From an uncultured Actinomycetes bacterium (lineage in GTDB: Bacteria; Actinomycetota; Thermoleophilia; UBA2241), in assembly GCA_963725665.1 (NCBI GenBank), contig CAVRZA010000003.1:32001-96000 (forward strand): DNA of 64,000 nt, given 5' to 3'. A model generated the notes under the pieces. It saw nothing but the letters and a program-made list of their open reading frames with translations. It was not told where the DNA came from and searched no databases. A program made the position numbers and the translations under genes. Below are positions 12,512-32,161 of this stretch, in pieces (position 1 is the first letter of the stretch; each line of letters opens with the position of its first letter).

Positions 12512-13687
12512 GTGAAGGAGTTCACTGTACCGAGAAACACCTTCTACGGTTTTGGCGCGCTCGCGAACGTCACGGCGATACCGGCCAAACGTGCCATGGT
12601 CGTGAGCGATGCGGTGATGGCGAGCCTCGGCTGGGTGGAGAAGGTCAAGGCGATCCTGGAGGCCAACGGCACAGAGGTGACGGTCTTCACCGACGTTGAA
12701 CCGGATCCGTCGCGGGACACGGTGGCCTCAGGTGCCGCCATCATGCGGGAGTGCCGCCCGGAGGTCGTCGTCGGGCTGGGCGGGGGCTCCTCAATAGACG
12801 CCGGCAAAGCCATGTGGGTCTTCTACGAGTTACCTGAGATGACGTGGGAAATCGCCAGTGTGCCTTTCTCCCTGCCACCGTTGCGCAGCAAGGCACGATA
12901 CGTGGCGGTGCCCTCGACGAGTGGCACGGGAACCGAGGTGGGGATCGGCGCCGTCATCACCAACACGCACGCCGATCCTCCCGTCAAGAAATCCATAGAC
13001 TCCTACGAATTGACGCCCGATGTCGCTATCGTCGATCCGGAGCTCTGTCTCACCATGCCGCCCGAGGTCACCGCGAACACGGGCATGGACGTTATCTCGC
13101 ACGCGCTCGAGGCCTACGTGGCGGCCGGCGCGAACGACTTCTCCGACGGCTTGGCGATCAAGGCGCTCCAGCTTGCATTCGGGTGGCTGCCGTCGGCCGT
13201 GAAGGATGGCAGCGACAGAACCGCAAGAGAGAAGATGCACTATGCCTCGGCGGTGGCCGGCCTGGCGTTCAACAACGCTGGTCTTGGGATAACCCATTCG
13301 CTCGCTCATCAGCTTGGGTCCGTGTGGGGAGTTCCGCACGGCCGGGCCAACGCTGTGATCATGCCGTACGCCGTTGAGTACAACGCCGAGGTGTCAGCCT
13401 CCCGGTACGGCGATGTCGCTGCGGCGATCGGTGTCGGTGGGGCCGATGTCGAGCAGTCGGTGACACGGCTGATCGACAGGATCGTCGAACTGATGAAGCA
13501 GATAGGCATGCCTTCGTCGATCGAGGAGCTCGGGATACCTTCGGACCAGTTCGGAAGGGCAGTGGACCTCATTGCGCAGAACGCCCTGGACGACGCTTGC
13601 ACGGGCGACAACGATCGTCAGCCGACCGTGGAGGACTTGAAGGGGATCTACGCGCGCTCGTGGGAAGGAGCGCTGCACCGGGCATAG
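12512..13687 (+). CDS. iron-containing alcohol dehydrogenase
   Basis: GGGSSIDAGK, PSTSGTGTE, DVISHALE, GITHSLAH...HGRAN metal ligands. Confidence 0.93.
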   Translation: MKEFTVPRNTFYGFGALANVTAIPAKRAMVVSDAVMASLGWVEKVKAILEANGTEVTVFTDVEPDPSRDTVASGAAIMRECRPEVVVGLGGGSSIDAGKAMWVFYELPEMTWEIASVPFSLPPLRSKARYVAVPSTSGTGTEVGIGAVITNTHADPPVKKSIDSYELTPDVAIVDPELCLTMPPEVTANTGMDVISHALEAYVAAGANDFSDGLAIKALQLAFGWLPSAVKDGSDRTAREKMHYASAVAGLAFNNAGLGITHSLAHQLGSVWGVPHGRANAVIMPYAVEYNAEVSASRYGDVAAAIGVGGADVEQSVTRLIDRIVELMKQIGMPSSIEELGIPSDQFGRAVDLIAQNALDDACTGDNDRQPTVEDLKGIYARSWEGALHRA

Positions 13688-13718: not shown

Positions 13719-15213
13719 TCAAGCGTCGCGTCGTGCTTGGACGTCGCTGAGAAGGTCCGACATGCGGCTCAGCTCGGTCAGCTCCTTGAGCCTTCCCAGC
13801 AGTAGGCGTGTCGTCTCCTCATCAAGAACGCGCCGAGAGAGCTCACGAAACTTGGCCTCAAGCTCCCTCGGCGTGAGGGGGTTGTCAGGATCACCCTTAG
13901 GTGAGTCGACTTCGGCTGTGACTGTCGTTCCGTTCACGGTGTCTACCTCGACCCATGCCGCCCAGCGGCGCGGGTAGTCGGAGTCGAGGGATCGGATCGA
14001 CGTCGAAGCTCACCTTGGCCATGAGGTCGACGAGGCGCGGTTCTGCGAGAGCGGCAACATTGAAGCTGTCGACCTGCAGTCGTCCGCTCAGCGCCGCCTG
14101 GGCCAGGCAGAACGGCAGGCTGAACTTGGCCGCCCACGGACTGGACGGCGTCACATCTCTCAGAAGATCGAAGGCGGCCGAATTGACATGCGCGTGGATC
14201 GCCTGAATGTCGCCCGCGAGAAGGGAGTGCTCCTTCATGGCGAGAAGGAGCGCGTCGACGGCGGGGTGGGTGTGGCGGCACGAGGCGTGGTATTTGACCG
14301 AGACTTCGGGCGTCTTGAAGGTCGCGAAGCGCCAGGCGGCCGAGTCCCCGGCAGACGACTCCTGGAGACCTTCCATCAGGTGGCTACGCTGCTCCCGGCG
14401 CAGCGTCTCCCCATCGGTGCCCGACTCGAGCTCGTCTCGAGCTGTGGCCGCTAAGAGCGCCTTCTCACCGAGAAGTACCTCGGTGGATCCGGTGAAGCCC
14501 TCAGCCGCAAGATAGGCAGAGAGTGTGCCGTTGAAGGCAGCTTTGGCGGGATGAAGCTGTTTCGACATCGCGCCGTCGGCAAGGAACTGCCACAGTCCCG
14601 CCGCCTGCGTCCCGGCGCTCCCGAGAGCAGACAGCATGTCCTCGCTGCCCAACCCGAGGATGTGGCCCGCGGCGACGGCGGCGCCGAACGTCCCTGCTGT
14701 GCCGGTGGTGTGGAAGTAGCGGTAGTGCTGTGGACCCAGGGCCTGGCCGATGCGAAGCGAGACCTCGTAGCCTGCCACCGAGGCAGTCAAGAACTCGCGT
14801 GGGCCGACCGCCTCTGCTTCTGCGACTGCCAGTGCCGCGGGGAAGACACAGGTGCCCGGGTGGTAGATGGATCGGTTGTGAAGGTCGTCCATCTCCTCGA
14901 CATGACTCGATGCACCGTTCAGCAGCGCCGCGACGAGCGGAGGTCCTTGGGCCAGCTGAGGCAGGACGGTGGCTGTCCGCCTGCCATGGCCGGGGCTCCC
15001 GGCCTCGGCCTTCTCCAGGCCTCCGTGTGCCAATGCGCGCAAGAGAAGTGCGGCTTGCGGCGACCTGCATCCGGCCAACGCGGAGCCGACCCAGTCTAGA
15101 AACAGCGCCTGGATGGCCGCGATCACATGGGGCGGGAGTTGCTCCCAGGTCAATCCGCTGGCGGCGCTGGCGAGAGCACGCTCGGGTGCGACGGGTCTGC
15201 TTCGTCGGTCCAT
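13719..15213 (-). CDS. MmgE/PrpD family protein, frameshifted near 13992
   Basis: LNGASSHVEEMDDLH, HPG, FHTTGTAG, HASCRHTH, AKFSLPF; the C-terminus KGDPDNPLT is in another frame, one base off at about 13992. Confidence 0.85.
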
Positions 15214-15265
15214 TTCTTCGCCTCCCGCTCGTTGGTCAGATGTTGGCTCGCTCACGGCCTGAGCC

Positions 15266-16969
15266 TCAGTACTTGCGATCTTGAGGAGGGAACCGTCCAA
15301 GCGTGACCGGGCGGTAGTCAAGGAGGGGCCCGCCATCAGTGTGATGGGCGAGGGTGTGCTTCAGCCAGTGCGTGTCATCTCTTGCGGGGTAGTCCGTGCG
15401 CGCGTGAGCTCCTCGCGACTCCTGTCGCGCAAGAGCACCCAACGTCCCTGCAAGCGCGACCTCGGCCATGGCGAGCAACTCGAGGGTGCGTACGAGATCC
15501 ACGTTGAAGAGCAAAGATGAGCACTGGAGGCGAACCCCTCCGCAGCGCTCTCGCAACTCGCGCAGCCTCGAGACTGCACCCACGAGCTCAGCTTCATTGC
15601 GAAAGACCTGTACGGACGCGTCCATGACCCCGGTGAGCTCGGCACGCAGGACGCCCACCGTCTCCGTCGCGGTACGGGAGAACAGCTCCGAGATTCGCTC
15701 TTCGCAGTCTCGCACAGCCTCCTCCACATGTTTGGACCCGGGCGCCGCGCCGGCCTGGCGGACGAAGTCCGCCGCCGCCAGGCCGGCGCGGCGGCCGAAG
15801 ACGAGTGTCTCGAGGAGCGAGTTGCCGCCCAGGCGGTTGGCCCCGTGAACCGAGACACACGCGCACTCGCCGGCTGCATAGAGGCCGCGCAGCTCCGTGG
15901 CGCCATCGGCATCCGTGTCGATACCGCCCATCGAATAGTGCTGTCCCGGCTGTACCGGGATGGGATCGTGAACTGGGTCGACGCCGGCGAAATGAAGGCA
16001 CAGATCCCGGATGCCCGGCAACCTCTCGGCGATCACCCGCGGTCCCAGATGGCGCAGGTCCAGATGGACGAACGCCTTGCCGTCGATGCCGCGACTGTGG
16101 TCGATCTCGGTCTGGATCGAGCGGGCCACGACGTCGCGGGGCGCCAGCTCCATCGAACTCGACGCGTAGCGTTCCATGAACCGTTCGCCGTCACGATTGA
16201 GCAGGTAGCCCCCCTCGCCGCGGCAACCCTCGGACATGAGGATGTTCGTGCCGATGAGGGTCGTCGGGTGGAACTGCACGAACTCCATGTCGCACAGCGG
16301 GATTCCGGCGCGGTAGGCGAGGACCATGCCGGCGCCGGTATTGATGAGGGCGCTGGTCGAACGCCCGTAGACACGCCCGGAACCACCCGTCGCCAAGAGC
16401 ACGGCGCCGGCCGAGAAGCCCTCGATGCCTCCGCCCCGCAGGCTGTAGGCGACCAAGCCGATACAGCCCTCATCGTCTGTCACGAGTCGCTCGACGAAGT
16501 ACTCTTCGTAGACCCGGAGTCCCGCGGCGAGCGCTTGCTCATAGAGCGTGTGCAGCAGGTAGTGACCGGTCTTGTCAGCCGCGTAGCAGGCACGGGGGTA
16601 CTGCGCTCCGCCCAGGTTGCGTTGGGCGATCGTGCCGTCCTCATTGCGGCTGAACGGCGTGCCCCAGTGTTCCATCTCGTAGATGCGCGCCGGCGCATCG
16701 CCGCACAGCACCTCGATGGCGTCTTGGTCGCCTAGGTAGTCGGAGCCTTTGACGGTGTCGAACACGTGTGCAGCGATGCTGTCGCTCTGCGCCTGCGGCT
16801 GATTGCGCAGGCAGGCGTTGATGCCGCCCTGCGCCGCCCCTGAGTGTGATCGGATTGGATGGACCATCGATATCAGGGCGCAGTCGACGCCCAACCGCGT
16901 AGCCTCGATCGCGGCGCGCAAGCCGGCGAGGCCGCCGCCCACGATCAGCAACCCGTGCCGATGATGCAT
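15266..16969 (-). CDS. sdhA: succinate dehydrogenase/fumarate reductase-type flavoprotein subunit (no B/C subunits adjacent)
   Basis: GGGLAG, RSHSGAAQGGI (covalent FAD His), QFHPT, EGCRGEGG, LAPRD, HYSMGG, HGANRLGGNSL, ESRGAH. Confidence 0.9.
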   Translation of the reverse strand: MHHRHGLLIVGGGLAGLRAAIEATRLGVDCALISMVHPIRSHSGAAQGGINACLRNQPQAQSDSIAAHVFDTVKGSDYLGDQDAIEVLCGDAPARIYEMEHWGTPFSRNEDGTIAQRNLGGAQYPRACYAADKTGHYLLHTLYEQALAAGLRVYEEYFVERLVTDDEGCIGLVAYSLRGGGIEGFSAGAVLLATGGSGRVYGRSTSALINTGAGMVLAYRAGIPLCDMEFVQFHPTTLIGTNILMSEGCRGEGGYLLNRDGERFMERYASSSMELAPRDVVARSIQTEIDHSRGIDGKAFVHLDLRHLGPRVIAERLPGIRDLCLHFAGVDPVHDPIPVQPGQHYSMGGIDTDADGATELRGLYAAGECACVSVHGANRLGGNSLLETLVFGRRAGLAAADFVRQAGAAPGSKHVEEAVRDCEERISELFSRTATETVGVLRAELTGVMDASVQVFRNEAELVGAVSRLRELRERCGGVRLQCSSLLFNVDLVRTLELLAMAEVALAGTLGALARQESRGAHARTDYPARDDTHWLKHTLAHHTDGGPLLDYRPVTLGRFPPQDRKY

Positions 16970-17227
16970 GCCCTAGGTCTCCTCTTGCCCTTCATGACCG
17001 GGTAGTCCAGAGACAGTCCTGCCTCGGGGCGGCCAAGCAGTCGGCGACGAACGGCCGCTCGCTTGAGCCACTTGGTCCCCTCCGTCGGGTTGAATCCTTT
17101 CGAGCAGGCCTCGCCGTTCGCCCCTCAGCCGCAAGCTCCGGCTTGGCGGCAGTATACGATTTCCACGACCTCATGGTCCAGCTTGGCCGTAATCGTGCTC
17201 AGGACACAGGCCGAATCCTTGACGAGG

Positions 17228-17246
17228 TTGCACAATTGCATACAAT
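17228..17246. promoter_or_regulatory. putative GntR/FCD operator in the divergent promoter
   Basis: AT-rich TTGCACAATTGCATACAAT containing near-palindrome ATTGCATACAAT, just upstream of the GntR gene. Confidence 0.55.
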
Positions 17247-17294
17247 CCAGCGTAGAACACCGTGAAACGACACTGCGGCAGAGATGGAGGAGTT

Positions 17295-18032
17295 GTGTCC
17301 ACCGGCGTGGCCGAAGTCGCCGTCCGCGAACGGATCGCCGCGGCGATCGCCGAGGGCGAATTTCCCCCTGGGACCCAACTCGTGGAGAGTATGCTGGCCG
17401 AACGATTCGGGGTCAGCAGGAGCCCGGTTCGCGGCGCTCTCCGGGCCCTCGAGGGTGACGGGCTCGTCGTCCACTATCCGCACAGAGGCGACTTCGTCGC
17501 GGCGCTCTCTCCCTCCGACATCGAGGAGATCTTCTATCTGCGCGAGGTGCTCGAGATCGCCGCCGTGCGACTCGCCTACCGGCGCATCCCCGCGAACGAG
17601 CTGCGCGATGTCGAGGAGGTGCTGGAGTCGCTATCGCCCGAGGACAGCCCGCGGGAGGACTTACTCGCCAGCGACGACGCTCTCCACGATCTGATCGCCC
17701 GCAACTCGGGCAACGGCCGACTGCGGTACGCGTTGAAGCAGCTGAGCGCCCAGATCCAGTTCACCCGGCGCACGTCTATGTCTCGAAAGAGCAGGCTGGC
17801 GGCGAACCTCGCGGAGCACAAGGAGCTCGTAGCGGCTCTCAAGCTGGGCGACCTGCCGCTCATCGAAGCGCGCCTGCGTGTGCACCTGAAGGCGGGCAAG
17901 GAGAGCACGCTCGAGGCGTGTCGCTCGCTGCCGTTCTCACGAGAGGATCGCCAGTGGGGCGCGAAGTCGGATCGCGGGCGCCGGCGACGTGCTCGCGGCA
18001 CTGGCGCAACGCCGCAGGGCAGGGAAGGCTAG
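17295..18032 (+). CDS. GntR family regulator (FCD domain)
   Basis: FPPGTQLVESMLAERFGVSRSPVRGAL HTH; FCD motifs LHDLI, SGN, EH; GGAGG RBS before GTG 17295. Confidence 0.92.
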   Translation: MSTGVAEVAVRERIAAAIAEGEFPPGTQLVESMLAERFGVSRSPVRGALRALEGDGLVVHYPHRGDFVAALSPSDIEEIFYLREVLEIAAVRLAYRRIPANELRDVEEVLESLSPEDSPREDLLASDDALHDLIARNSGNGRLRYALKQLSAQIQFTRRTSMSRKSRLAANLAEHKELVAALKLGDLPLIEARLRVHLKAGKESTLEACRSLPFSREDRQWGAKSDRGRRRRARGTGATPQGREG

Positions 18033-18044
18033 GAGGCGGTAGCT

Positions 18045-19400
18045 TTGAGTGTCACGAGAGTCCTCTCGCCGACGGCGATCCTCGGATACGGGTTCCCGGT
18101 CGAGTCGTTCCGCGAGGGCATGCGGCGCGCCCCGCACGTGATCGCCGTCGATGCAGGCTCGACCGATCCTGGGCCATACTACCTCGGAGCCGGCAAGCCC
18201 TTCACCGATCGGGACGCGGTGAAGCGCGACCTCCGGCTGCTCCTGGAGGCCTCTCGTTCGGCTGAGATACCGCTGCTTATCGGCACGGCTGGTGGCAGCG
18301 GCGGCGAACCGCACCTCGCGCGCGACCTCGACCTGCTGCTCGAGGTCGCGCGCGAGCTTGGCGTTCACTTCACGCTGGCCGTGATCCATGCGGAGGTTGA
18401 TAAAGACCGGGTCAAGCGGGCGCTGAGGTCTGGGCAGGTGAGCGGAATCGGGCCGACCCCCAAGCTGACCGAAGCCGCCGTTGAGGCTTCGGTGCGCACC
18501 GTGGGGCAGATGGGTGCCGAGCCGCTGATCGAGGCCCTCGAATCGGGTGCCGAAGTCGTGTTGGCCGGCCGTGCCTACGACCCGGCCGTCTTTGCTGCCG
18601 CCCCGCTCACACGAGGTTGTGCTCGAGGACCTGCCATCCACCTCGGGAAGATACTCGAGTGCGGCGCCATCGCCGCCACTCCCGGCAGTGGCAGCGACTG
18701 CCTGTTCGGCTATCTCGATGGTGATTCGTTCGAGGTCGAGCCGCTCAACCCGGAGCGTCGTTGCACTGTGACATCGGTGGCTGCGCATACGCTCTATGAG
18801 AAGTCGGATCCGCTGACGCTGCCGGGTCCGGGCGGCCGGCTGGATCTGCGCCAGACGAGCTTCGAGCAGGTGGAGCCGGGCCGGGTCCGCGTCAGCGGCA
18901 GTCGCTTCGTTCGCGGCGATGGCTACCAGGTAAAGCTCGAAGGTGTGGAGAAGGTCGGTTATCGAACCCTGTCGCTCGCCGGCTGCCGAGACCCTTTCAT
19001 GATCGCCGCGATCGACGACATCGTCGAGTCGGTCACTCAGCGCGCGCTCGACAACTTCGAGATGGATCGTGATGACTGCACGCTCAGCTTCAAGCTGTAC
19101 GGCAAGGACGGCGTCATGGGCCCCCTCGAACCATGCCGCGAGCATGTCCCTCTCGAGTTGGGCATCGTGATCGAAGCAGTCGCACCCACTCAGCAGATGG
19201 CAGACACGCTCTGTTCATTTGCACGCTCGACGATGTTGCATTGCAGCTATCAAGGGCGAGTCGCAACAGGCGGAAACCTCGCCTTTCCCTACTCGCCCTC
19301 CGACCTGCCGGCCGGCGAAGTCTACCGTTTCAGCATCTATCATCTGATGAGCGTGAACGACCCCTGTGAGTTGTTCCCGATCGAATACATGGCGGTGTGA
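18045..19400 (+). CDS. AtuA/DUF1446 family protein
   Basis: SPTAILGYGFP, DAGSTDPGPYYLG, GRAYD, GKILECG, VAAHTLYEK, TGGNLAFPYSP. Confidence 0.8.
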   Translation: MSVTRVLSPTAILGYGFPVESFREGMRRAPHVIAVDAGSTDPGPYYLGAGKPFTDRDAVKRDLRLLLEASRSAEIPLLIGTAGGSGGEPHLARDLDLLLEVARELGVHFTLAVIHAEVDKDRVKRALRSGQVSGIGPTPKLTEAAVEASVRTVGQMGAEPLIEALESGAEVVLAGRAYDPAVFAAAPLTRGCARGPAIHLGKILECGAIAATPGSGSDCLFGYLDGDSFEVEPLNPERRCTVTSVAAHTLYEKSDPLTLPGPGGRLDLRQTSFEQVEPGRVRVSGSRFVRGDGYQVKLEGVEKVGYRTLSLAGCRDPFMIAAIDDIVESVTQRALDNFEMDRDDCTLSFKLYGKDGVMGPLEPCREHVPLELGIVIEAVAPTQQMADTLCSFARSTMLHCSYQGRVATGGNLAFPYSPSDLPAGEVYRFSIYHLMSVNDPCELFPIEYMAV

Positions 19401-19430
19401 GGTGGCTGTGCATCAGCCGGGGGCCCGGGC

Positions 19431-19784
19431 GTGAACGATGACAACAGTCAGCAGGAGGCGATACCCATTCTCGATCTCGCTCACGTCATCCGCAGCAAGA
19501 ACAGCGGACCTTATGAGCTCACCTTCGACATCGTGTTCAAAGACCCGACCCGCTACCAGCTCGCTGTCACGTCGGGCATCTTCACCCCGGAGCTCTTCGC
19601 CCGGATCTATGGCCTTTCCGTCGACCAGGTGCTCAACGTCGTCTTCTTCGCGCAAGCCTGTGCGATCAAGGCCACCATTGTGAGGCCGCTAGTCTCAGGC
19701 GACATCGGCGAGAGGGACGTCTACGGAGCCCAACAGCATGCGCCGCTCTTGAGCATCATGGTCCCCGTGAAGCCAACCTCGTGA
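19431..19784 (+). CDS. DUF4387 family protein
   Basis: LAHVIRSKNSGPYELTFDI and DVYGAQQHAPL; the usual partner of DUF1446 proteins. Confidence 0.85.
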   Translation: MNDDNSQQEAIPILDLAHVIRSKNSGPYELTFDIVFKDPTRYQLAVTSGIFTPELFARIYGLSVDQVLNVVFFAQACAIKATIVRPLVSGDIGERDVYGAQQHAPLLSIMVPVKPTS

Positions 19785-19852: not shown

Positions 19853-21595
19853 CTAGCGGCCTCCGCCCCTATCTGATTGCTCGAAGGCAAGGAGCAATCC
19901 CAGGGCGACCCCGTACCGGGGTCCATGCGTCCCGTCGATGTTGGCCGTGCCGACGATGGTCTCCAGGTGCTGTACCGACTCACCCACGATGCGGACCGCC
20001 TCCGCATCCAGTGCGGCACCCCCGGATAGGAGGAGTGTGCTGGGTCTTCCCTTCAGCCACCTCAAGCACCTAACGACGTTGGCTCCGATCACTCGCTGCT
20101 TGATGGCGAGCCGCAACGGTCTCCATTCCTCGGGCGCCAGTCGATCGGAGAAGGGAGTGGGCGTCGCACCCCGCAGGAAGCACAAGCGACCGAGCGCGGC
20201 TGCGGGTAGCGGGGTCTCTACGAAGGACCTGCTTCCGTCCTCATAGTGCACCATGTGAGGCGCCTCGACGCGCAGGGAGACGAACTTCTTCACCGATTCG
20301 CCTACTCTCTTGCGCAGACCCAGCGCCTTCGCTACTGACACCGTCAGGAGCTCTCCGGCGCCCGCGGCCGTGATGCGCTGGTCTCCCCACACGAGATCGA
20401 TAGTGCCTCCGCCCATGTCGCACACGGCCGCGTCCTCCGGGGCGCCCGGCGTGGTCAGGGCTCCGAGGGCAGCAGCCTCTGCTTCAGACGCCATCACGTG
20501 GACCGGGCGTCCCGCCGCTTCCGCCAAGACCCGTTCCGGGCGCGATGACGAAGGGGGCGCTGACACAAGCGCGGCGATCGGCACCTCGGCGAGCTGGATC
20601 GATCCCTCTCTGGGGAGGAACTGCCCTCGTATCGACGGCAAATCGACAGCGAACACGTCGCGGATTCGTTCCTGGACACCCCCGAGCGCGTCGCAGAGAG
20701 GCAAGCCTTTGGGGACGTGGACCCTGCGCACAGAACCGGGCCGCAGAGAATCGACATGCTCCAGCAGGCGATGGGAGAGGGGGAGCCGGCTCACGACTCC
20801 GTCTCCCTCATACTCGAGCCATCCGGTCTCGCTGCTCTCGATGTGGTGCTCGACATCTCGGCACAGGGCGAGAGCAGCGCATCGCGCGTCGGCGAGACCC
20901 AGTGTCACATCGTTGAGCAAACGAGCCTGCGTCGGCGCGAGTCCGAAGGCGGCGACCAGGGCCACGGGATCACCCAGGACCTTCACGCGCGCGCCTGGGC
21001 CGGCCACCTCGACGGCGATCGGTTCGCCGGCCTGCAGGCCGACCACGTCAGCTTCGTCGACGATAGGGATCGTCCGCGGGATGCGATTCGCGATGAGAAC
21101 GGCATCGTCGCCCGCCACGACGGCTGCCACAACCGGCAGCTGCATGGCCAGAGCCTGGGAGATCGTGTCGGCGGCCTCCTCGAAATCGGTCCTGGAGGGC
21201 ACGGAGACGATGAGCGATCCACTCCGCCCAGCGTGGCTTCTGAGATCACGGAGAGGCACATGGAAGCCGGCCGCGAAGCCGATCCCCGCGGGCGTGCCGG
21301 CAGACGGATCATCCAGCCGCCGAAGCAGGGGCGAGCCGCCGGAATGAGAGGGCAGCGAGGCCGAGAGCGTGATGACGGGCTGGAGCGGAGGCAGGAGCAG
21401 AAGCTCGGACCTTCTTCCCATCGCCTGCTCGGCGCGTAGTACAAGGCGCGCGGCATTCCTCACTGAGTCGTCGCTGCCTTTCCCCCCGACGGTCCAGGCG
21501 CGCCGAGCGATCAAGGTCGTGACCGACCCGCGCTCCACTTCGGCGATGAGAACCTCGGTCGTCGTGTTGCCGATGTCAACGCCGGCGACGATCAT
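19853..21595 (-). CDS. pduG: diol/glycerol dehydratase reactivase alpha-like ATPase
   Basis: AGVDIGNTTTE, DDAVLIANR, EAEAAALGALTTPG, DMGGGT, AGAGELLT, GPRYGVALGL. Confidence 0.85.
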   Translation of the reverse strand: MIVAGVDIGNTTTEVLIAEVERGSVTTLIARRAWTVGGKGSDDSVRNAARLVLRAEQAMGRRSELLLLPPLQPVITLSASLPSHSGGSPLLRRLDDPSAGTPAGIGFAAGFHVPLRDLRSHAGRSGSLIVSVPSRTDFEEAADTISQALAMQLPVVAAVVAGDDAVLIANRIPRTIPIVDEADVVGLQAGEPIAVEVAGPGARVKVLGDPVALVAAFGLAPTQARLLNDVTLGLADARCAALALCRDVEHHIESSETGWLEYEGDGVVSRLPLSHRLLEHVDSLRPGSVRRVHVPKGLPLCDALGGVQERIRDVFAVDLPSIRGQFLPREGSIQLAEVPIAALVSAPPSSSRPERVLAEAAGRPVHVMASEAEAAALGALTTPGAPEDAAVCDMGGGTIDLVWGDQRITAAGAGELLTVSVAKALGLRKRVGESVKKFVSLRVEAPHMVHYEDGSRSFVETPLPAAALGRLCFLRGATPTPFSDRLAPEEWRPLRLAIKQRVIGANVVRCLRWLKGRPSTLLLSGGAALDAEAVRIVGESVQHLETIVGTANIDGTHGPRYGVALGLLLAFEQSDRGGGR

Positions 21596-21631: not shown

Positions 21632-22000
21632 TCAGCTCAGCCGGTGCAGTCCACGTCGCCCGTAGACCGCCGAGGCTTCCCTCACGAGCGCCGCGCACAA
21701 CGGTGCGTTCGACGCCTCGAGACGGCGTGCGATGGCCTCTAGCTGCGCGAGCGACGCCCGGCCGGGTCGCAGCGCCTCGTAGATGGCGAGGACCTCTGCG
21801 TCATCGAGAGCCGTGAGCTCAGCGGCTCGTCGCAGGTTCTCGGCCAGCCGCGCGTTGCCGTGTTGTTCCGCGACGAGCGCCTGGTGGCGGAGCGTGTCGG
21901 GGTGGATCCTGAGGTCGTCCGGCGACAGGCTCCCGTGCGCTGCCGAGTCGATGGTGATCTCGGAGAGCGGGCGACCGGATAGAGCGTGAGCGTCAGTCAT
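21632..22000 (-). CDS. pduE: diol dehydratase small (gamma) subunit
   Basis: DLRIHPDTL..QA..AE, LAENLRRAAELT, IYEALRPGRAS; ATGA overlap with the large subunit gene. Confidence 0.9.
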   Translation of the reverse strand: MTDAHALSGRPLSEITIDSAAHGSLSPDDLRIHPDTLRHQALVAEQHGNARLAENLRRAAELTALDDAEVLAIYEALRPGRASLAQLEAIARRLEASNAPLCAALVREASAVYGRRGLHRLS

Positions 22001-24276
22001 TTGACCACCCTCAGATTGACCGGCGCGGCGCCTGGTACGCATTCGTCGCGCTCGATCGCCATCATCGCGACGACTTCGGCGTGGTAGCGCGCCTCGATCG
22101 CTTGCTCCGTGTAGGGATTGCGTATGGGAACGGGCCGCAGGCCCTTCGCGTGCCGGCCGGCGTTGGTGCCCAGGGCTCGGTACATCTCCTTCGTGACGAG
22201 CGGGGCGATCGAGTAGAGCTCGAGGCAGGCGAGAGGAGGAAGGTCACGGCGATGGATGAGAGCCGTGCCTTTCGCCTGAAGGCCGACACCGATCCCCGAG
22301 CCGGCCAGGCGCGCCCCGGTCAAACCGACCATCCCCAGGTCGATCGTCGACCCCACGCGGACGAGGCGCGCGATACATCCCTCTTCTTCAAGGCCGGCCA
22401 GGATCTGCCGCAGGACCTCTCCCACGGGCAGCCCCGACATCGTGATCCACAGCTTCGTGGCCAGCGCCGGAGACACCCCAACGCAGACCTCACGGGGATC
22501 GACCCCCAGCTCCGCCTCGCCCTGTTCGATTAGGCGAACGTGGCCCGCCCAAGTCGCCTGTTTCCTCAGCAGTTCCTCCCTGGACCGTTGCTGACGGATG
22601 CCGGCCATCTCGGTCCGCCGCGCCGCCGTCACCTCGTAGCCCGTCCCAGGCCCCTGGTAGTCGTTGGGGTCCGTGATCTTCGAGAGGACGTTCATCTCTT
22701 CGTCGAAGATGGCCGCCGTCTGCAGGTAGTCGCCGGCGACGCGTGCTCGCCCCATGGCGAGCACGCGTCGCGCCTCCTCCCGGAATCCGGTGCGATCCAG
22801 GGCGCGAACCACGTCGAGGATGCCCAGCTCCTTCTCCCGGATGGCATCCGCGGCCTCCAGCACGATCCCGGGGTCCAGCGGTGGCAGATCTTTCGAGCCT
22901 TCCGCGGCCACGACGGCGGCGACGTGGTCGTCTGCGAAGTCGGCCAGGCCCAAGTCGCGGTAGACGGCCTGCACGGCTTCGGCAGCCCGTTGCCGCACCT
23001 CGCGAAGCCGCGCCTCATCCACCGGTCTTAGGCCGCCCTCGACGCCCCAATCCCTCTGCATGACGAGGTAGTCGTCCAGGTCCTCGCCGTTGAAGTTGGA
23101 CGGGCCGAACATGTTGTCGTAGCGCACGATCGAGCCGAAGCCCGAGAACAGGAAGTCGGATCCGGCTAGGACAAGGGGCACCGTATGGGCCGTTCGCCTC
23201 ACGTCTGATTCGGACACCTGACTGTCGTTCCCCGAACAGGATTCGAGGTCGTGAAGCATCACGAGCAGGTTCTCGGCCAAGAGCTCGCGCATGCCGTCGG
23301 GAACCGAGGCAACCACGCTGGCGCCGTCGATGCCGCCGTTTTGCACGCCCTGGGATCCCATCGCCCGAGCCAGCGCGACGCACCTTGACTCGAGGTAGCA
23401 CATCGACTTGCCTTCGGCGGCGCCCATGAGCACCTCCGCGCCGCCGCCGCTCGTGACCCTCATCTTGAGACCGCGAGAGGCGTACGCAGAGCAAAGGAAG
23501 GCCTTCGACCAGGGTGTGTCGTCACCGTCGACGAACACCTGCTCGGTTCCGTACAGGGAGACGGTCTCGGCATACATGGTGAGGCCGCGGAGGCCAAGTT
23601 CGAGCTCGAGGGCCTCCTCTATGGAGCACTGGGTGAGCGCGCCTGCGGCGCCGACCTGCGACCCGATGAGCACGGCGAGAGCGTTCGAGGGGGCGTCCGC
23701 CAGGACGGGCACCGTCGTCTCGAGCTCCCTGAACCCGAACGCGACCGCCGTTGCGGCGTCGGCTGCCAGAAGGAGAGGGTCATCGAGCCGGTTCGTGACG
23801 TGCGCTTGGATCGATGGTGTGCGTCTGACCCTCATCTTCGCGATCGCCATCTGCAGCTCGACTGGGCGGAGTCGCGCCACGACACGTGCCAGCTTGGCCG
23901 GCGTCGCTCCTCCGGCGAGCCGTGCAACCTCCTCGCGAGGCGTCGAGGGGTCGACGATCAGTCGCGCGAACGCGATGTCGGCAAGGCCGTTCGCCTCGAT
24001 GGCGACCGATGTGTCGATCCCGTGGTCGGCGATGTAGGCATCGACGATGTCGAATCGATCCCTGGGCACGCCGTCCAGGAGCACAACGTGGCCCTCGGCG
24101 TCGATCTCTATAGAAGGATCGGGGTCGTGCCTGCTTGCGAAAGCGACGAGGCCCACGTCGTCATCCTCTTGGGAGAACCCGTCGAGGTTGACCGGTCGCT
24201 TGTCGAGCCCAAGAAGCCGGCCGAGCCTGAAGGCGGTGTCTCCGTCTCCGCTGGCTGTCGCGTGTCCTTTTGCCAA
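21997..24276 (-). CDS. pduC: B12-dependent diol/glycerol dehydratase-like enzyme, large and medium subunits fused
   Basis: RRTPSIQAHVTN, ELETT, YAETVSLYGT, DGDDTPWSKAFL, YDNMF, NDYQGPGTGY; then the beta domain ILAGLEEEG, GSGIGVGLQAKGT, LELYSIAP. Confidence 0.9.
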   Translation of the reverse strand: MAKGHATASGDGDTAFRLGRLLGLDKRPVNLDGFSQEDDDVGLVAFASRHDPDPSIEIDAEGHVVLLDGVPRDRFDIVDAYIADHGIDTSVAIEANGLADIAFARLIVDPSTPREEVARLAGGATPAKLARVVARLRPVELQMAIAKMRVRRTPSIQAHVTNRLDDPLLLAADAATAVAFGFRELETTVPVLADAPSNALAVLIGSQVGAAGALTQCSIEEALELELGLRGLTMYAETVSLYGTEQVFVDGDDTPWSKAFLCSAYASRGLKMRVTSGGGAEVLMGAAEGKSMCYLESRCVALARAMGSQGVQNGGIDGASVVASVPDGMRELLAENLLVMLHDLESCSGNDSQVSESDVRRTAHTVPLVLAGSDFLFSGFGSIVRYDNMFGPSNFNGEDLDDYLVMQRDWGVEGGLRPVDEARLREVRQRAAEAVQAVYRDLGLADFADDHVAAVVAAEGSKDLPPLDPGIVLEAADAIREKELGILDVVRALDRTGFREEARRVLAMGRARVAGDYLQTAAIFDEEMNVLSKITDPNDYQGPGTGYEVTAARRTEMAGIRQQRSREELLRKQATWAGHVRLIEQGEAELGVDPREVCVGVSPALATKLWITMSGLPVGEVLRQILAGLEEEGCIARLVRVGSTIDLGMVGLTGARLAGSGIGVGLQAKGTALIHRRDLPPLACLELYSIAPLVTKEMYRALGTNAGRHAKGLRPVPIRNPYTEQAIEARYHAEVVAMMAIERDECVPGAAPVNLRVVK

Positions 24277-24342
24277 CCGATTGCCCTCAGCGCTTCTGGC
24301 TATCGCCTTGCGACCTCGCCACGGTCACGGACGTGGGCAAGG

Positions 24343-25111
24343 TCACCGACAAGTGTTGCCGCCGTCTACCGTCACCACCGACCCTGTCATGAAGCTCGAG
24401 TCGTCGCCGGCGAGGAACAGCACGACGGCCGCTATCTCCTCTGGCTCCGCCATTCGGCCGAGAGGGACATCCGAGCCGACGGACTCTGCGAATGCGTCGG
24501 CAGAGGCGCCAATGAAACCGGCTCGGGCGTCCAGGACCATGGGTGTCAAGGTGTCTCCCGGGCAGACCGCGTTGCATCTGATGCCGTCGGCGGCGTGGTC
24601 GATGGCGATGGCCTTGGTCAGCATCACGACGGCTCCCTTGCTGCAGCAGTACGCGACTGAATCCCGGCCGGCCACAAGACCCCAGTCGGAAGCGTTGTTG
24701 ACGATGACTCCCCGCTTCTGGTCCCTCATGAACGGAACGACCGCTTGGGCGTAGAGGAACTGACCGAAGAGGTTGACCTCGATCACCCGGCGAAATCTCA
24801 AGAGTGGTCGTCAGGACGGTCCCGGCGTCGATCATGCCCGCGTTGTTGAACAGCACATCGATGCGGCCGTACCTGGCCACCGTCGCCGTCACGACCCGAC
24901 GGACATCATCAGGATCCGTCACGTCGCCGGGTGCGAAGAAGGCATCGGTGGCCCCCTCTGTGCTGCACGCGACGACGACCTGGCGTCCTCTATCCACGTC
25001 GCGTCCTGTCAGGGCCAGAGCGGCACCTTCGCAGGCGAACGCGTGAGCCGTCGCCGTGCCGATCCCCGAAGAGGCTCCAGTGATCAAGCAGACCCTGTCC
25101 TTCAGCCGCAA
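24343..25111 (-). CDS. SDR oxidoreductase, frameshifted near 24795
   Basis: TGASSGIG and NNAG in one frame; YCCSK, NAVCPG and VDGG in the other; TTG start after GGAGG. Confidence 0.85.
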
Positions 25112-25333
25112 GCGTCCCTCCTGCTGGATCGGCCCACTCTCGTCATTCTCTCCTATCAACCGCCCGGAGTCTCGTCGCAGAACGCACTGGCACCAGTGGC
25201 TCTTCTCAGGCAGGCGTGCTGAGTGCGGCGAATCCTACCCAGGGACAAGGTCTCCCATCCAGTGCGGCAGCGATCGCCAGCCCCGCCTGGTGCTCGTTGC
25301 ACACAGCGCCAGCGTCGCCGGCCGCCCGCTGCA

Positions 25334-28482: not shown

Positions 28483-30042
28483 TCACGTCACCTTGATGAG
28501 CAGCAGGGTCAGGTCGTCCGCCGGGGGCATGCCGCCGCGAAAGTCGGCGACCTCGGTGAGGACAGTCTCGAGGATGGCCTCGGGCGCGTCGGCACGCACG
28601 CGGCGCAGGCACGCGCACAGGCGCTCGACGCCGAAAAGCTCACCGGCGGCGTCGCGCGCCTCCGTCACCCCGTCGGTGTAGAGCGCGACGAGGTCGCCGG
28701 GGCTCAGCCTGAGTGTGTCCTCGGGGAAGTCGAGCCCCGGCCGGACGCCCAGCAGGCTGCCGCGGGCCGCCACTCGGCGCTCACCTTCGTCCCCGAACAC
28801 CAGCAGAGGGTTGTGACCGCCGCCGGCCACCGTCAGGCGTCGCCGTGCGGGATCGTAGAGTGCGTACGTGAGCGTGAGGAACGAGGGCAGCGCCTGGCCC
28901 TCGAGGTCGCGCGCGAGGCCGTCGTTCACCTCTGCCAGCACGCGGCCCGGCGAGCGTCGCGCGCGAGCCGCCTGGTGCAGCAGTGAACGAGCCATGGCCA
29001 TGATGAGGGCCGCCGCGAGCCCCTTGCCCATCACGTCGCCGCAGGCGATCGCCAGGTGGCCGTCGTCGAAGTCGAGGAAGTCGTAGTAGTCGCCGCCCAT
29101 CTCCGTCATGAACTCGATCCGGGCGGCGAACTCGAGGCCCTCGACCACAGGGGACTCCTTGGGCAGCAGGTCGAGCTGGATCTGTCGGGCTCGCTCGATC
29201 TCGGCGGCCACTTTGCGCTGCGTCTCGGCGAGCCGCTCGTGGAGCCGCGCGGTGGCTACGAGCTCGTCCTTGAACGACGCCAACGCCGCGGTGTGGGACT
29301 CGCGATCGCGGGCGCGGCTGGCGTAGATCTCGTAGGAGTAGTAGATGAGGAACAGCGGTGGCAGGGCGAGCAGTAGACCGGGAAGGCCGAGCGCGAGGTA
29401 GAGGCCGGCCACGAGCAGGCTGAGCGACGCACCCGTGAGGTAGCTCGGCAGCCCCCATTGGTAGTTGCGCTGCCACACGCGCAGGGCGCTCTCGCCAGTC
29501 GCCAGCGCGATGACGCCGGCAAGCACGACCGTGTTGGCCAGGAAGTCGACGCCAGTCGCGGCGAACGCGGGTAGCACGCGGTCGGTGAAGGTGGCCGTCA
29601 GGGGCACGAGGGCGACGTACAGCGCACCGCCGAGGAACGTCGAGAGCACGTGGTTGGCCACGTTGAAGACGATCTTCTGGGGGTCGTGCGTGAGCCAGGC
29701 CGTGGCGAGCCCCGAGGCGATGGCCACAAGGAGGGCGGGGAAGAGACCGAAGACGATCAGGGCGGCGAGGATGAGGACGAACGACAGCGTCACCACGCCG
29801 ACGCCCGGCAGGCGGACCTCGCGCAGATCGGCGAAGGCGGCGAGGGCGATGAAGGCGATGAGGGCCGGCGTGACCTCTCCGCTGTGGCCGGCCAGGGCCA
29901 GGCCGACCACGGCCGCGGCGACAACGGCGGCTACGTACAGTGAGACGGCCGCGCGTTGCCGCGCGGCCGTCTCACTGCCGGGCTGCGCTGGGGCGCCGAC
30001 TACTGACCGTCGATCATCGTCGTCCAGGAGTACTTGGTCCAT
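28483..30042 (-). CDS. membrane-anchored SpoIIE/PP2C phosphatase (start uncertain)
   Basis: About 7 TM helices, coiled coil ARQIQLDLLP, GGDYYD, GDVMGKG, YTDGVTE, DDLT; the nearest in-frame ATG upstream of the first TM helix is at 30042, inside the upstream gene. Confidence 0.88.
   Translation of the reverse strand: MDQVLLDDDDRRSVVGAPAQPGSETAARQRAAVSLYVAAVVAAAVVGLALAGHSGEVTPALIAFIALAAFADLREVRLPGVGVVTLSFVLILAALIVFGLFPALLVAIASGLATAWLTHDPQKIVFNVANHVLSTFLGGALYVALVPLTATFTDRVLPAFAATGVDFLANTVVLAGVIALATGESALRVWQRNYQWGLPSYLTGASLSLLVAGLYLALGLPGLLLALPPLFLIYYSYEIYASRARDRESHTAALASFKDELVATARLHERLAETQRKVAAEIERARQIQLDLLPKESPVVEGLEFAARIEFMTEMGGDYYDFLDFDDGHLAIACGDVMGKGLAAALIMAMARSLLHQAARARRSPGRVLAEVNDGLARDLEGQALPSFLTLTYALYDPARRRLTVAGGGHNPLLVFGDEGERRVAARGSLLGVRPGLDFPEDTLRLSPGDLVALYTDGVTEARDAAGELFGVERLCACLRRVRADAPEAILETVLTEVADFRGGMPPADDLTLLLIKVT
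29938..29977. other. perfect 18-bp hairpin at the protease/phosphatase junction
   Basis: CAGTGAGACGGCCGCGCG-GCAA-CGCGCGGCCGTCTCACTG on the minus strand (GNRA loop). Confidence 0.8.
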
Positions 30043-31628
30043 GAGTACTTCGTCCACGAGTACTTGGTCCACGAATACTTCGTCCAGGAATACTTCGTCC
30101 ATGAGTACTTGGTCCATGAGTACTTGGTCCACGAATACTTCGTCCACGAGTACTTCGCCCAGTTCACCAGCACGTCGGGAGGCAGGATGGTCGAGCCATC
30201 GCCAAGGTCGGCCGAGAGCGCCGGCCCGTCAGCTCGCATGTGGTTGGCGAGCACCGACGGCGTGTCGACCGCGCCGGCCCCCTGCACCGCCGACGACACA
30301 CCGGCCAGCGGACGCGCGCTCGCCATCAGGCGCACCTTCACGTCGTCGGGCGTGAGTCTTGGGTCGCGCTCGAGCATGAGGGCGGCGACTCCGGCCACGA
30401 CCGGCGCGGCTGTGCTCGTCCCGGAGAGCTTGAAGTAGGCAGGCTTCTCCCAAGCGGGAGCGGTGGGAGCGTAGAGGGACACCGGGATGCGGTTGTCGGG
30501 CCAGGTGCGGTCGACGAAGCTGCCCTTCACACGCAGCGAGATCAGACGGTTGCCGGGTGCGACGATGTCGGGCTTCGCGAACTCGTCGAACAGCGTCGGT
30601 CCGATCGAGCTGTAGCCGCACACGGCGTCGTCGTCGAGCGTCGCCGTCTGCTTCGTATCGAGCGCGCCGACGGTGATCGCCAACGGGTCGTTGCCGGGAG
30701 AGAGGATGCCGCCGTTGCCGAACTCACCTTCGTTGCCGGCGGCGCAGATGACGACGATGCCCGCTCTCCACGCGGCCTCCACGGCCTTTGCCAGGGGATC
30801 GTCCGAGACCGGCCCGGGAATGTCCCCGCCGGCCGAGATGTTCAGCACCCTGATGTGGTACTCGTTCTTGTGGCGGATGGCCCAGAGGATGCCCCTGATC
30901 ACGTCGGAAGCTCTACCCTGCCCGTACCTGTCGAGGACCTTGATGGCGACGATGTTGGCGCCGGGAGCGACGCCGCGGAACTGCTGCGTCGCGTAGCCGC
31001 CCTGATCGACCGGCAGCGAGGCGGTGCCGTCGCCTGCGATCAAACCGGCGACGAACGTGCCGTGCCCGGCGTCGTCGTACGGATGTCTCTTGCCCTTGAC
31101 GAAGTCGACCCAGCCGACGAGGCGCGAGCCATGAAGGTCGGCGGTCTCGTCGATGCCGCTGTCGATCACGGCGACCGTGACCCCCCTGCCCGTGGGTCCG
31201 CCGTCCCAGGGGGCGGGCAGCCGACCCAGTCCTATCGTCAGATTGGTCACGTCCATGGTGCTCGCGTAGTCGGCGGCGAACACGGTGGGGTCGGACGTGA
31301 TCGCAGTGACGTAGGGAAGCTCCGCCAGGGAATCGACCTGCTCCGCCGTGAGGGGTGCAGCGGCGGCCTTCACCACGTCGAGGGGCTCGGCGTCCGGAGT
31401 GGACGAAAGCGCCCCCATCACGTCGTCGACGTGTCCCGGCGCGTAGACGATGACGGGGACGGCCTCGCCGGGCGAGGCGGCCAGCGCCGCCGTGACTGCG
31501 GGGTCGACCTTCGTCGCCGTGTCAGGCCTCGCCGTCGGCGAGCCCCACTTGGCCGCCCACGCCGGCGAGGCCAGCGCGAGCAGCAGAAGGAGTGTGACCG
31601 CGACCGCGGCCTGGTAGCGCCTTCTCAT
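30000..31628 (-). CDS. secreted S8 subtilisin-like serine protease with C-terminal (KYSWT)x9 tail
   Basis: Sec signal MRRRYQ...ASPAWA; VAVIDSG, HGTFVAG, AAGNEG, SGTSTAAP catalytic motifs; GGAGG RBS. Confidence 0.93.
   Translation of the reverse strand: MRRRYQAAVAVTLLLLLALASPAWAAKWGSPTARPDTATKVDPAVTAALAASPGEAVPVIVYAPGHVDDVMGALSSTPDAEPLDVVKAAAAPLTAEQVDSLAELPYVTAITSDPTVFAADYASTMDVTNLTIGLGRLPAPWDGGPTGRGVTVAVIDSGIDETADLHGSRLVGWVDFVKGKRHPYDDAGHGTFVAGLIAGDGTASLPVDQGGYATQQFRGVAPGANIVAIKVLDRYGQGRASDVIRGILWAIRHKNEYHIRVLNISAGGDIPGPVSDDPLAKAVEAAWRAGIVVICAAGNEGEFGNGGILSPGNDPLAITVGALDTKQTATLDDDAVCGYSSIGPTLFDEFAKPDIVAPGNRLISLRVKGSFVDRTWPDNRIPVSLYAPTAPAWEKPAYFKLSGTSTAAPVVAGVAALMLERDPRLTPDDVKVRLMASARPLAGVSSAVQGAGAVDTPSVLANHMRADGPALSADLGDGSTILPPDVLVNWAKYSWTKYSWTKYSWTKYSWTKYSWTKYSWTKYSWTKYSWTKYSWTTMIDGQ
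30021..30155 (-). repeat. nine 15-bp coding repeats encoding KYSWT
   Basis: Units start every 15 bp from 30021 to 30141; all differences are at third codon positions. Confidence 0.97.
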
Positions 31629-31741
31629 GGTCCGTCCCTCCACACCCTGCTCCGTTGGCTTCGCCGCTCTCGCCGAACGAGCGGGCTGGTCCTGTCGCGA
31701 AGGGGCGCCCGTGCCGGAAGGCCGTGAGGAGGGTCGGGTGG

Positions 31742-31820
31742 TTCGGCGGCCGAGCTATCTTGCCGTCGGGCAAGACCTCTAGCTTTGCGTCCCTGCCTCA
31801 CAGCAGGTTTGCCCTTTCGT
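31742..31820 (-). promoter_or_regulatory. c-di-GMP-I (GEMM) riboswitch
   Basis: Minus strand GAAAGGGCAAACCTGCT-GTGA-GGCAGGGACGCAAAGCTAGAGGTC...GATAGCTCGGCCGCCGAA matches the GGCAAAC...GACGCAAAGC...GATAGC...CCGA consensus. Confidence 0.88.
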
Positions 31821-32161
31821 TGGGAGAAGTATCGACTGCGCGGCGCGACAAGATTAGACGAACGTTCTACATGTGTAGCCGGTGCGGCGACGTATCCAGC
31901 GCAAGAGGCGTCCGGAGGGCCGACGCCCTGTCAAGGGGCCAAGAACATGGGATTCAGCTACAGGAAACGTACTCTACGCAGGCTTTACACTGAATGGAGT
32001 ATGCCAAGGTGTACTACCCTTCGGAAGCCTTGTTTGGGCGATGGTAAGATAGCCCGGTCAACAGGGGCCAGCGGCAGGAGGATCGGCGGTGACCCTCAGC
32101 AGCCGTGTTGCGCTGGGGTGACGGTCCGGCGGGGTCGGGAGCTACGAGGGAAAGGAGCGCC

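Follow-up and report, generated by a model that had tools for sequence, protein, structure and literature searches.

Diol and glycerol dehydratases that depend on B12 are textbook examples of radical enzymes and serve as catalysts in industry, with a narrow known range of natural substrates. In PduCDE, PddABC, and GldABC, the alpha and beta subunits are separate polypeptides. Natural alpha-beta fusions are mentioned for Mesorhizobium loti and Mycobacterium smegmatis in a passage of PMC7674605 that refers to Liu et al. 2010. M. smegmatis has three genes annotated as “glycerol dehydratase large subunit,” MSMEG_0497, MSMEG_1547, and MSMEG_6321 (PMC8088520, Table 1). In passages of a transcriptome study of this species, no medium-subunit gene was found, and MSMEG_0497 and MSMEG_6321 were not glycerol-induced, with table values of 8.94 and 57.6 on glycerol versus 30.11 and 120.85 on cholesterol (PMC4881515). 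Here, we investigated a fused dehydratase of this family encoded in a 64,000-nt stretch of DNA from an uncultured member of the Thermoleophilia (the window; G000:C3:32001-96000). The window lies within a 3.73-Mb bin of 12 contigs, with 97.5% completeness and 5.04% contamination. All positions are those of the whole window, and genes are read on forward-strand coordinates with a strand sign. The fused protein has a substrate pocket rebuilt around an aspartate, and this pocket is the signature of a whole clade of fused dehydratases.

The dehydratase is a single open reading frame (ORF) of 759 aa at 21997..24276 (-), encoding the fused alpha-beta subunit of an adenosylcobalamin (AdoCbl)-type diol/glycerol dehydratase. 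The large-subunit family PF02286 matches residues 18-566 with 767.9 bits (alpha domain, ~22579-24225), and the medium-subunit family PF02288 matches residues 603-715 with 86.9 bits (beta domain, ~22132-22470). The alpha/beta fusion that had been read by eye in the initial annotation is therefore borne out. The fused protein scores 853 bits against NF011979, for which the cut-off is 788, and falls below the cut-off of the NCBIfam medium-subunit model NF011616 (168 vs 248). The beta domain can be aligned from residue 42 of PddB and residue 69 of PduD, so the N-terminal extension is absent, and Lys135 of the medium subunit, which we take to be a cobalamin-contacting residue, is retained in the alignment.

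We read the substrate pocket from a MAFFT alignment and from a phmmer alignment to solved glycerol dehydratase fusions. The numbering was checked on the annotated Salmonella PduC (L055:1501-3165, 554 aa), which carries Q141, H143, E170, E221, Q296, S301, D335, Q336, and S362 at those exact numbers. In this family, Q141, E170, E221, Q296, and S362 are the metal and substrate ligands, and H143 and D335 are catalytic. These roles are taken from passages of PMC7674605 and from general background on the family, and the assignment of residues to the pocket rests on the alignments together with such literature passages. All seven metal and catalytic residues are retained in the window protein, as Q157, H159, E186, E237, Q312, D351, and S378; six of them (all except S378) had already been listed as retained in the initial annotation, with which the formal alignment to Salmonella PduC agrees. 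Six pocket positions are substituted from PduC to the window: S299 to G315, S301 to D317, C302 to G318, Q336 to S352, Y364 to F380, and S365 to G381. The strings QNGGIDG, NDS, and SGFGSI are present as first read. The formal alignment had been named beforehand as the comparison that could overturn the by-eye reading if it found the residues conserved. It found S301 and Q336 not conserved in the window, and the changes of S301 to Asp, of Q336 to Ser, and of SGYSAV to SGFGSI all stand. The two central codons were read directly, with D317 (Ser301 of PduC) encoded by GAC at 23326-23328 (-) and S352 (Gln336 of PduC) by AGT at 23221-23223 (-).

The placement of S301 and Q336 at the site of the substrate’s C3 substituent, also claimed at the outset, is supported by passages of two reviews, PMC7674605 and PMC9850924, in which Ser301, Gln336, Val300, Thr222, and Phe374 surround the C3 group. 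A passage of PMC7674605 places the C3 hydroxyl of glycerol against Ser301 or Asp335. The same two positions have been mutated for glycerol resistance and for long-chain diols, as described in parts of both papers. The S301A/Q336A mutant opens the pocket to longer diols and 1,2,4-butanetriol (a passage of PMC9850924), and S301A, Q336A, and the double mutant alter glycerol inactivation, which S301A and Q336A lower (a table of PMC7674605). Our literature search found no paper on Ser301 or Gln336 in natural variants, and, to the extent of our searches, an invariant acidic pocket is undescribed in print.

Next, we asked how widely this pocket is distributed. A word-indexed search returned at least 120 fused homologs at 68% identity or more, a one-genome-per-species scan gave 37 loci, and a metagenome scan gave 39 further loci. 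The closest loci of the species scan are from uncultured Thermoleophilia metagenome-assembled genomes (MAGs), at 85, 76, and 70% identity. Mycobacterium or Mycolicibacterium records account for 24 of the 37 loci (63-65% identity), and the rest are from Nanopelagicales, Kineosporiaceae, Acidimicrobiales, Gaiellales, and a few bins labelled otherwise. We aligned 51 rows, 42 from the clade and 9 from outside it. The clade rows are the window, a second copy of the locus on contig C10 of the same bin, the 37 loci, two second paralogs, and the distant representative P0127. The outside rows are Salmonella PduC, two DhaB1 proteins, a haloarchaeal enzyme, an unfused mycobacterial enzyme, and P0130-P0133, which like P0127 are representatives of 50% clusters.

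Asp301, Gly299, and Gly365 are found in all 42 clade rows, and Cys302 in none; position 302 is Gly, Ala, or Ser, and position 336 is Ser, Thr, Ala, or Asn. All nine outside rows have Ser301. Among the metagenome loci that cover the site, Asp301 is present in 36 of 36, with Ala (22), Ser (11), or Thr (3) at position 336. Altogether, 78 of 78 relatives covering the site have Asp301, and none has Gln336. In a quick IQ-TREE phylogeny of the alpha region, one branch with an SH-aLRT value of 98 parts the 42 Asp rows from the 9 Ser rows. Four columns strictly split the clade from the Ser-type enzymes (PduC numbering): 174 (Gly to Pro), 178 (Tyr to Asp), 301 (Ser to Asp), and 340 (His to Glu), with 174, 178, and 340 corresponding to window residues 190, 194, and 356. 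P0130 is fused yet has Ser301, and therefore fusion alone does not define the Asp301 clade. The window protein combines fusion, Asp301, and a residue other than Gln at 336, and it groups with the fused proteins of Mycobacterium and Thermoleophilia. The comparison with PduC/DhaB-type relatives proposed at the outset thus shows the pocket change as the signature of a whole clade. Judged by this alignment and tree, the signature belongs to the clade and is not a one-off or due to chance, and the clade is mainly actinobacterial and distinct from PduC/DhaB-type enzymes.

Across the phylum, an even sample of 401 genomes contains few carriers of the clade: 8 have any match to the family, and in only 3 (the window’s own genome, G116, and G157) does a match reach at least 63% identity. 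Some genomes have more than one enzyme. An Asp-type fused enzyme and a classical unfused Ser-type enzyme occur together in one Mycobacterium genome, as in G002 (with the unfused enzyme at L052) and G157, and two Asp-type copies are present in G004, G005, and G116. The unfused dehydratase of L052 (G002:C1:4693000-4712999) is encoded in the order small, large, medium, reactivase, and adjoins an APC (amino acid/polyamine/organocation) permease and eutB. The Asp-type and classical enzymes are found in the same genome, which argues that the two types are not redundant.

The fully conserved active site suggests chemistry of the diol dehydratase type. The two hydroxyls of the substrate would bind the active-site metal (Q141, E170, E221, Q296, and S362), and the adenosyl radical would abstract a hydrogen from C1. 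The C2 hydroxyl would then migrate with metal assistance and the help of H143, E170, and D335, and the resulting gem-diol would lose water to give the aldehyde. The C3-facing wall, rebuilt with one carboxylate and four smaller residues, would select a substituent that donates a hydrogen bond or is positively charged. Since the pocket is changed at the positions that contact C3 and the change is conserved clade-wide, a changed substrate preference is a reasonable inference. In our reading, the clade would prefer a diol with a hydroxyl- or amine-bearing C3 chain, unlike the methyl of 1,2-propanediol, and would differ in this from PduCDE and GldABC. We consider a preferred substrate other than plain 1,2-propanediol or glycerol slightly more likely than not.

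The same pocket could belong to an ordinary 1,2-propanediol or glycerol dehydratase, in which Asp301 and a small residue at 336 tune the kinetics or lower suicide inactivation. We give this account considerable weight, although less than an even chance. It fits the complete set of catalytic and metal residues, the NF011979 score above cut-off, and the lowered glycerol inactivation of S301A and Q336A in the table of PMC7674605. It also fits the presence nearby of a short-chain dehydrogenase/reductase (SDR) and an iron-containing alcohol dehydrogenase (Fe-ADH) with matches that include lactaldehyde reductase, which is the usual company of propanediol metabolism. However, propanediol- and glycerol-specific enzymes alike keep Ser301, Cys302, and Gln336, and a buried carboxylate that is invariant in 78 sequences is hard to square with a methyl-bearing substrate. 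The coexistence of Asp-type and classical enzymes in one genome also speaks against an ordinary enzyme, as do the genes MSMEG_0497 and MSMEG_6321, not raised on glycerol in the table of PMC4881515, if these are clade members.

The ordinary-enzyme account extends to RMM2 loci, which are RMM loci with diol dehydratase homologs (Axen et al. 2014, as described in a passage of PMC4207490). There, the dehydratase would simply be a second source of propionaldehyde, an idea that we hold at the same level, plausible and short of even. In the same passage of PMC4207490, Axen et al. considered the RMM2 dehydratase to be either unused or a second signature enzyme. This was the only paper joining RMM2 and diol dehydratase in our literature search.

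In a narrower version of our reading, the enzyme would act on a vicinal diol that bears an amine, such as 3-amino-1,2-propanediol; the ammonium group of this substrate would pair with Asp317, and the reaction would yield an amino-aldehyde. This version falls within the polar-C3 reading, so that the two probabilities overlap, and taken by itself we consider it possible but less likely than not. An acidic residue stands exactly at the position of the C3 substituent, and the remaining support is indirect and comes from other lineages. Of the 41 genome loci, 30 have an APC-family permease adjoining the operon. In 23 loci of the Mycobacterium clade and in five metagenome loci, 170-300 bases separate the dehydratase start from divergent genes for an AA_permease (511 aa) and a PucR-type regulator. 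In Nanopelagicales and Kineosporiaceae, a related permease, an acetamidase-like gene, and an HbpS-like gene precede the operon, and the flanks carry a class-III aminotransferase, an aldehyde dehydrogenase, an APH-type kinase, and a bacterial microcompartment (BMC) protein, which is the RMM gene set linked to amino alcohols. Urease-like genes are also present in the Nanopelagicales loci. RMM-type genes lie beside the Asp301 dehydratase in L028-L032 and L034, as well as in L077, L079, L082, and L088, and L033 has a permease fragment immediately upstream. In the operon of one Thermoleophilia MAG (L038:12249-17136), genes for a Peptidase_S58 protein and a pyridoxal phosphate (PLP)-dependent decarboxylase are located between the gamma and reactivase genes. 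In L080:2631-11731, an FGGY kinase (best match xylulokinase, below cut-off), a GntR/UTRA regulator, an APC permease, and a 252-aa protein of no assigned family precede an 83%-identical Asp301 dehydratase on one strand. By gene content, the neighbourhoods in other lineages suggest small molecules that are polar or contain nitrogen.

Several observations weigh against these readings. No amine-linked genes are located beside the operon in the window’s own genome, where the dehydratase is accompanied by the SDR and the Fe-ADH, and orthologs of the permease and of the APH-type kinase are absent from this genome. The permease family matches elsewhere are weak and far under curated cut-offs. Eleven of the 41 genome loci are without a permease: the window, the C10 copy, L005 (too short to tell), L020, L035, L036, L038, L039, L040, L050, and L051. 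The loci are also kin: counted as independent lineages, about three show the permease link and about four do not. The close relatives L064, L073, L094, L061, and L071 have no informative genes around the three-gene cassette. A shared propionaldehyde product can account for the RMM adjacency, and the partner of Asp317 might be a protein group instead of the substrate. The “glycerol dehydratase” genes of M. smegmatis are known by annotation, and MSMEG_0497 and MSMEG_6321 bear on the question if they belong to the clade. Our literature search turned up neither an assay of a fused or Asp301 enzyme nor a paper linking amino-propanediol with a B12-dependent diol dehydratase. To our knowledge, natural sources of amino-diols are not established, which counts against the amine-bearing version. 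The initial annotation had proposed a different substrate, bulkier or amine-bearing; the first part of this proposal gains from the conserved remodelling at the C3 positions, and the amine part finds its support in other lineages and none among the neighbours here.

The dehydratase gene is the second of four consecutive genes on the minus strand, for the SDR, the fused alpha-beta subunit, the gamma subunit, and the reactivase alpha subunit. The gamma (small) subunit, of ~122 aa, is encoded at 21632..22000 (-) and matches PF02287 with 119.5 bits, and every NCBIfam small-subunit model is below its cut-off. The mechanical ORF for gamma starts at 22042 (136 aa). The probable start is an ATG at 22000 that shares the sequence ATGA with the stop codon of the alpha-beta gene. 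This overlap suggests that the two genes are translationally coupled. Gamma is 45% identical to residues 57-166 of PduE and does not have the N-terminal extension of PduE (~55 residues). The N-terminal extensions of PduD and PduE are encapsulation peptides.

The diol dehydratase reactivase alpha subunit (580 aa) is encoded at 19853..21595 (-). It has ATPase-like and swiveling domains (PF08841, 188.7 bits; PF18427, 92.8 bits) and scores 236 bits against TIGR04491, under the equivalog cut-off of 400. The initial annotation had noted that the window lacks a PduH-like reactivase beta subunit and a microcompartment shell gene, and both absences hold for the whole genome. Genome-wide, PF02288 matches only the two fused dehydratase genes, and a tblastn search of the genome with the Citrobacter reactivase beta gave nothing better than E = 0.8; as a control, PF02288 detects the genuine reactivase beta of Citrobacter (81.8 bits) and Klebsiella (98.4 bits). 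The BMC shell family PF00936 has 0 matches in the 3.73-Mb, 97.5%-complete genome, and the control genomes do match. The dehydratase would be a complete AdoCbl-dependent vicinal-diol dehydratase that is free in the cytosol. Its reactivation would be carried out by an alpha-only ATPase without a small subunit, perhaps because the enzyme’s own beta domain is tethered.

The SDR at 24343..25159 (-), assigned by Pfam adh_short, is directly upstream of the dehydratase gene and has one frame change near 24796. In a three-frame reading, its N-terminal part is in the frame of ORF 24287-25159 and its C-terminal part is ORF 24343-24801; adh_short covers residues 23-116 of the first ORF and profile positions 100-189 in the second. 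An SDR is directly upstream of the dehydratase in the nearest relatives as well (window, C10 copy, L058, and L062), and L058 has an unbroken 269-aa ortholog at the same position (L058:7125-7934). The L058 ortholog passes only a broad glucose-1-dehydrogenase subfamily model and is under the cut-off for meso-2,3-butanediol dehydrogenase. By these matches, the SDR is generic.

The frame change raises the question of whether the locus is decaying or is an assembly artefact. The bin has 5.04% contamination, the C10 copy has three frame changes in its SDR against one in the window, and a second syntenic copy of the locus, 84% identical in alpha-beta and with the same pocket, sits on a contig of only 10.4 kb (L003, G000:C10:1-10400). 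This copy has the gene set Fe-ADH, SdhA-like, AtuA, DUF4387, reactivase, gamma, alpha-beta, and SDR, and may be a paralog or a co-binned relative. However, the dehydratase, gamma, and reactivase ORFs are unbroken in both copies with every conserved residue present, and intact SDR orthologs exist, so we consider decay or artefact of the locus very improbable. Among public contigs covering the SDR region, run X2 has 2 extra bases behind 24795 and run X1 is identical to the window. The SDR frame change itself may be either decay or an assembly error.

The Fe-ADH is at 12512..13687 (+) and matches PF00465 and PF25137. Its best NCBIfam matches are the C-terminal half of AdhE and lactaldehyde reductase, all below cut-off. 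An Fe-ADH is 8 kb from the dehydratase in the window, 3.5 kb on C10, and directly downstream in L058, where it is non-orthologous (31% identity to that of the window). In the window’s own subclade, the recurring neighbours are only the SDR (4 loci) and an Fe-ADH (3 loci, not all orthologous). The SDR and the nearby Fe-ADH probably make the diol and reduce the aldehyde; it is possible that the Fe-ADH consumes the aldehyde product. Between the Fe-ADH and the reactivase gene is a cluster at 13897-19784 that encodes MmgE/PrpD (13897-15336, -), an SdhA/FrdA-like flavoprotein (15266-16969, -), a GntR/FCD regulator (17262-18032, +), AtuA (18045-19400, +), and DUF4387 (19431-19784, +). This cluster converges on the reactivase gene, is common only to the C10 copy in part (DUF4387 partly with L058), and is probably a separate organic-acid unit.

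For the cofactor, the whole genome has one adenosyltransferase of the CobA/CobO type (C6:215991-216500), and therefore AdoCbl can be made from a corrinoid. The B12-binding domain PF02310 has 27 matches in the genome, many in open frames of 170-300 aa, and PF01923 (PduO type) and PF02654 (CobS) have no match. The source organism appears to be corrinoid-rich, and its cobalamin assembly may be incomplete. No cobalamin riboswitch was found in the window with Rfam at gathering thresholds. A cyclic di-GMP-I riboswitch (RF01051) was identified at 31742-31823 (-), with 65.9 bits against a gathering threshold of 35, just upstream of a subtilase S8 ORF at 30000-31643 (-). Further along the window are a radical SAM/SPASM protein at 32105-33517 (+) and an 845-aa protein at 34383-36920 (+) with an N-acetylmuramoyl-L-alanine amidase domain and FlgD-Ig repeats. 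Among public sequencing runs, no RNA run is listed as a match, and the best DNA runs share at most 0.18 of words.

Engineering of this enzyme family has centred on exactly the two positions, 301 and 336, that are rewritten naturally in the clade. Carriers of the clade include cultured Mycolicibacterium species that are easy to handle, along with many uncultured Actinomycetota. Knowing the substrate would establish a new natural specificity and settle the role of the RMM2-locus dehydratase, and the clade might also yield, for polar diols, an enzyme that is fused in nature and has a reactivase of one subunit. If the amine-bearing version is true, amine-bearing diols would be a third substrate class beside propanediol and glycerol, and the company of the operon with APC permeases and amino-alcohol catabolic genes would be explained. 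A simple preference for propanediol or glycerol would make the finding an ordinary one.

The fusion, the shell-less state, and the absence of PduH are not new and are properties of an already noted group. PddABC of Klebsiella oxytoca and PduCDE of Salmonella (PDB 1DIO and 1EEX) belong to the same three-subunit family and have identical metal and catalytic residues, with 1dio_A matching the window alpha region at E = 5.9e-161 and 1dio_B the beta region at 2.7e-36. Unlike these, the window alpha-beta is one polypeptide, with Asp for Ser301, Gly for Cys302, Ser for Gln336, and Gly for Ser365, and it is without the N-terminal extensions (~41 residues in PddB, ~55 in PduE), the shell, and PduH. GldABC/DhaB of Klebsiella pneumoniae and Citrobacter freundii (PDB 1IWP and 1MMF) are ~48-49% identical to the window protein, and engineered GldABC alpha-beta fusions (9VI2-9VIJ) are the best solved-structure match, with 714 bits over residues 20-757. 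In contrast to the window, the DhaB enzymes have Ser301, Cys302, and Gln336 and a reactivase beta of their own, and their fusion is man-made.

The natural fusions of M. smegmatis and M. loti, as mentioned in PMC7674605, share the alpha-beta fusion plus gamma, and the 24 fused proteins of Mycobacterium and Mycolicibacterium, 63-65% identical to the window protein, share the same pocket. The window differs from the mycobacterial loci in coming from a different class, with Thermoleophilia MAGs nearest (70-85%), and in having no divergent permease/PucR pair. The RMM2 loci, as described in the passage of PMC4207490, resemble it in that the same dehydratase clade lies beside RMM-type genes in other lineages; unlike them, this genome is without a BMC shell gene, the APH-type kinase, and a permease ortholog. 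The engineered S301A, Q336A, and S301A-Q336A enzymes (Yamanishi et al. 2012, cited in passages of PMC7674605 and PMC9850924) are changed at the same two positions and have a small residue at 336, but the clade has Asp and not Ala at 301, and positions 299, 302, and 365 are also shrunk.

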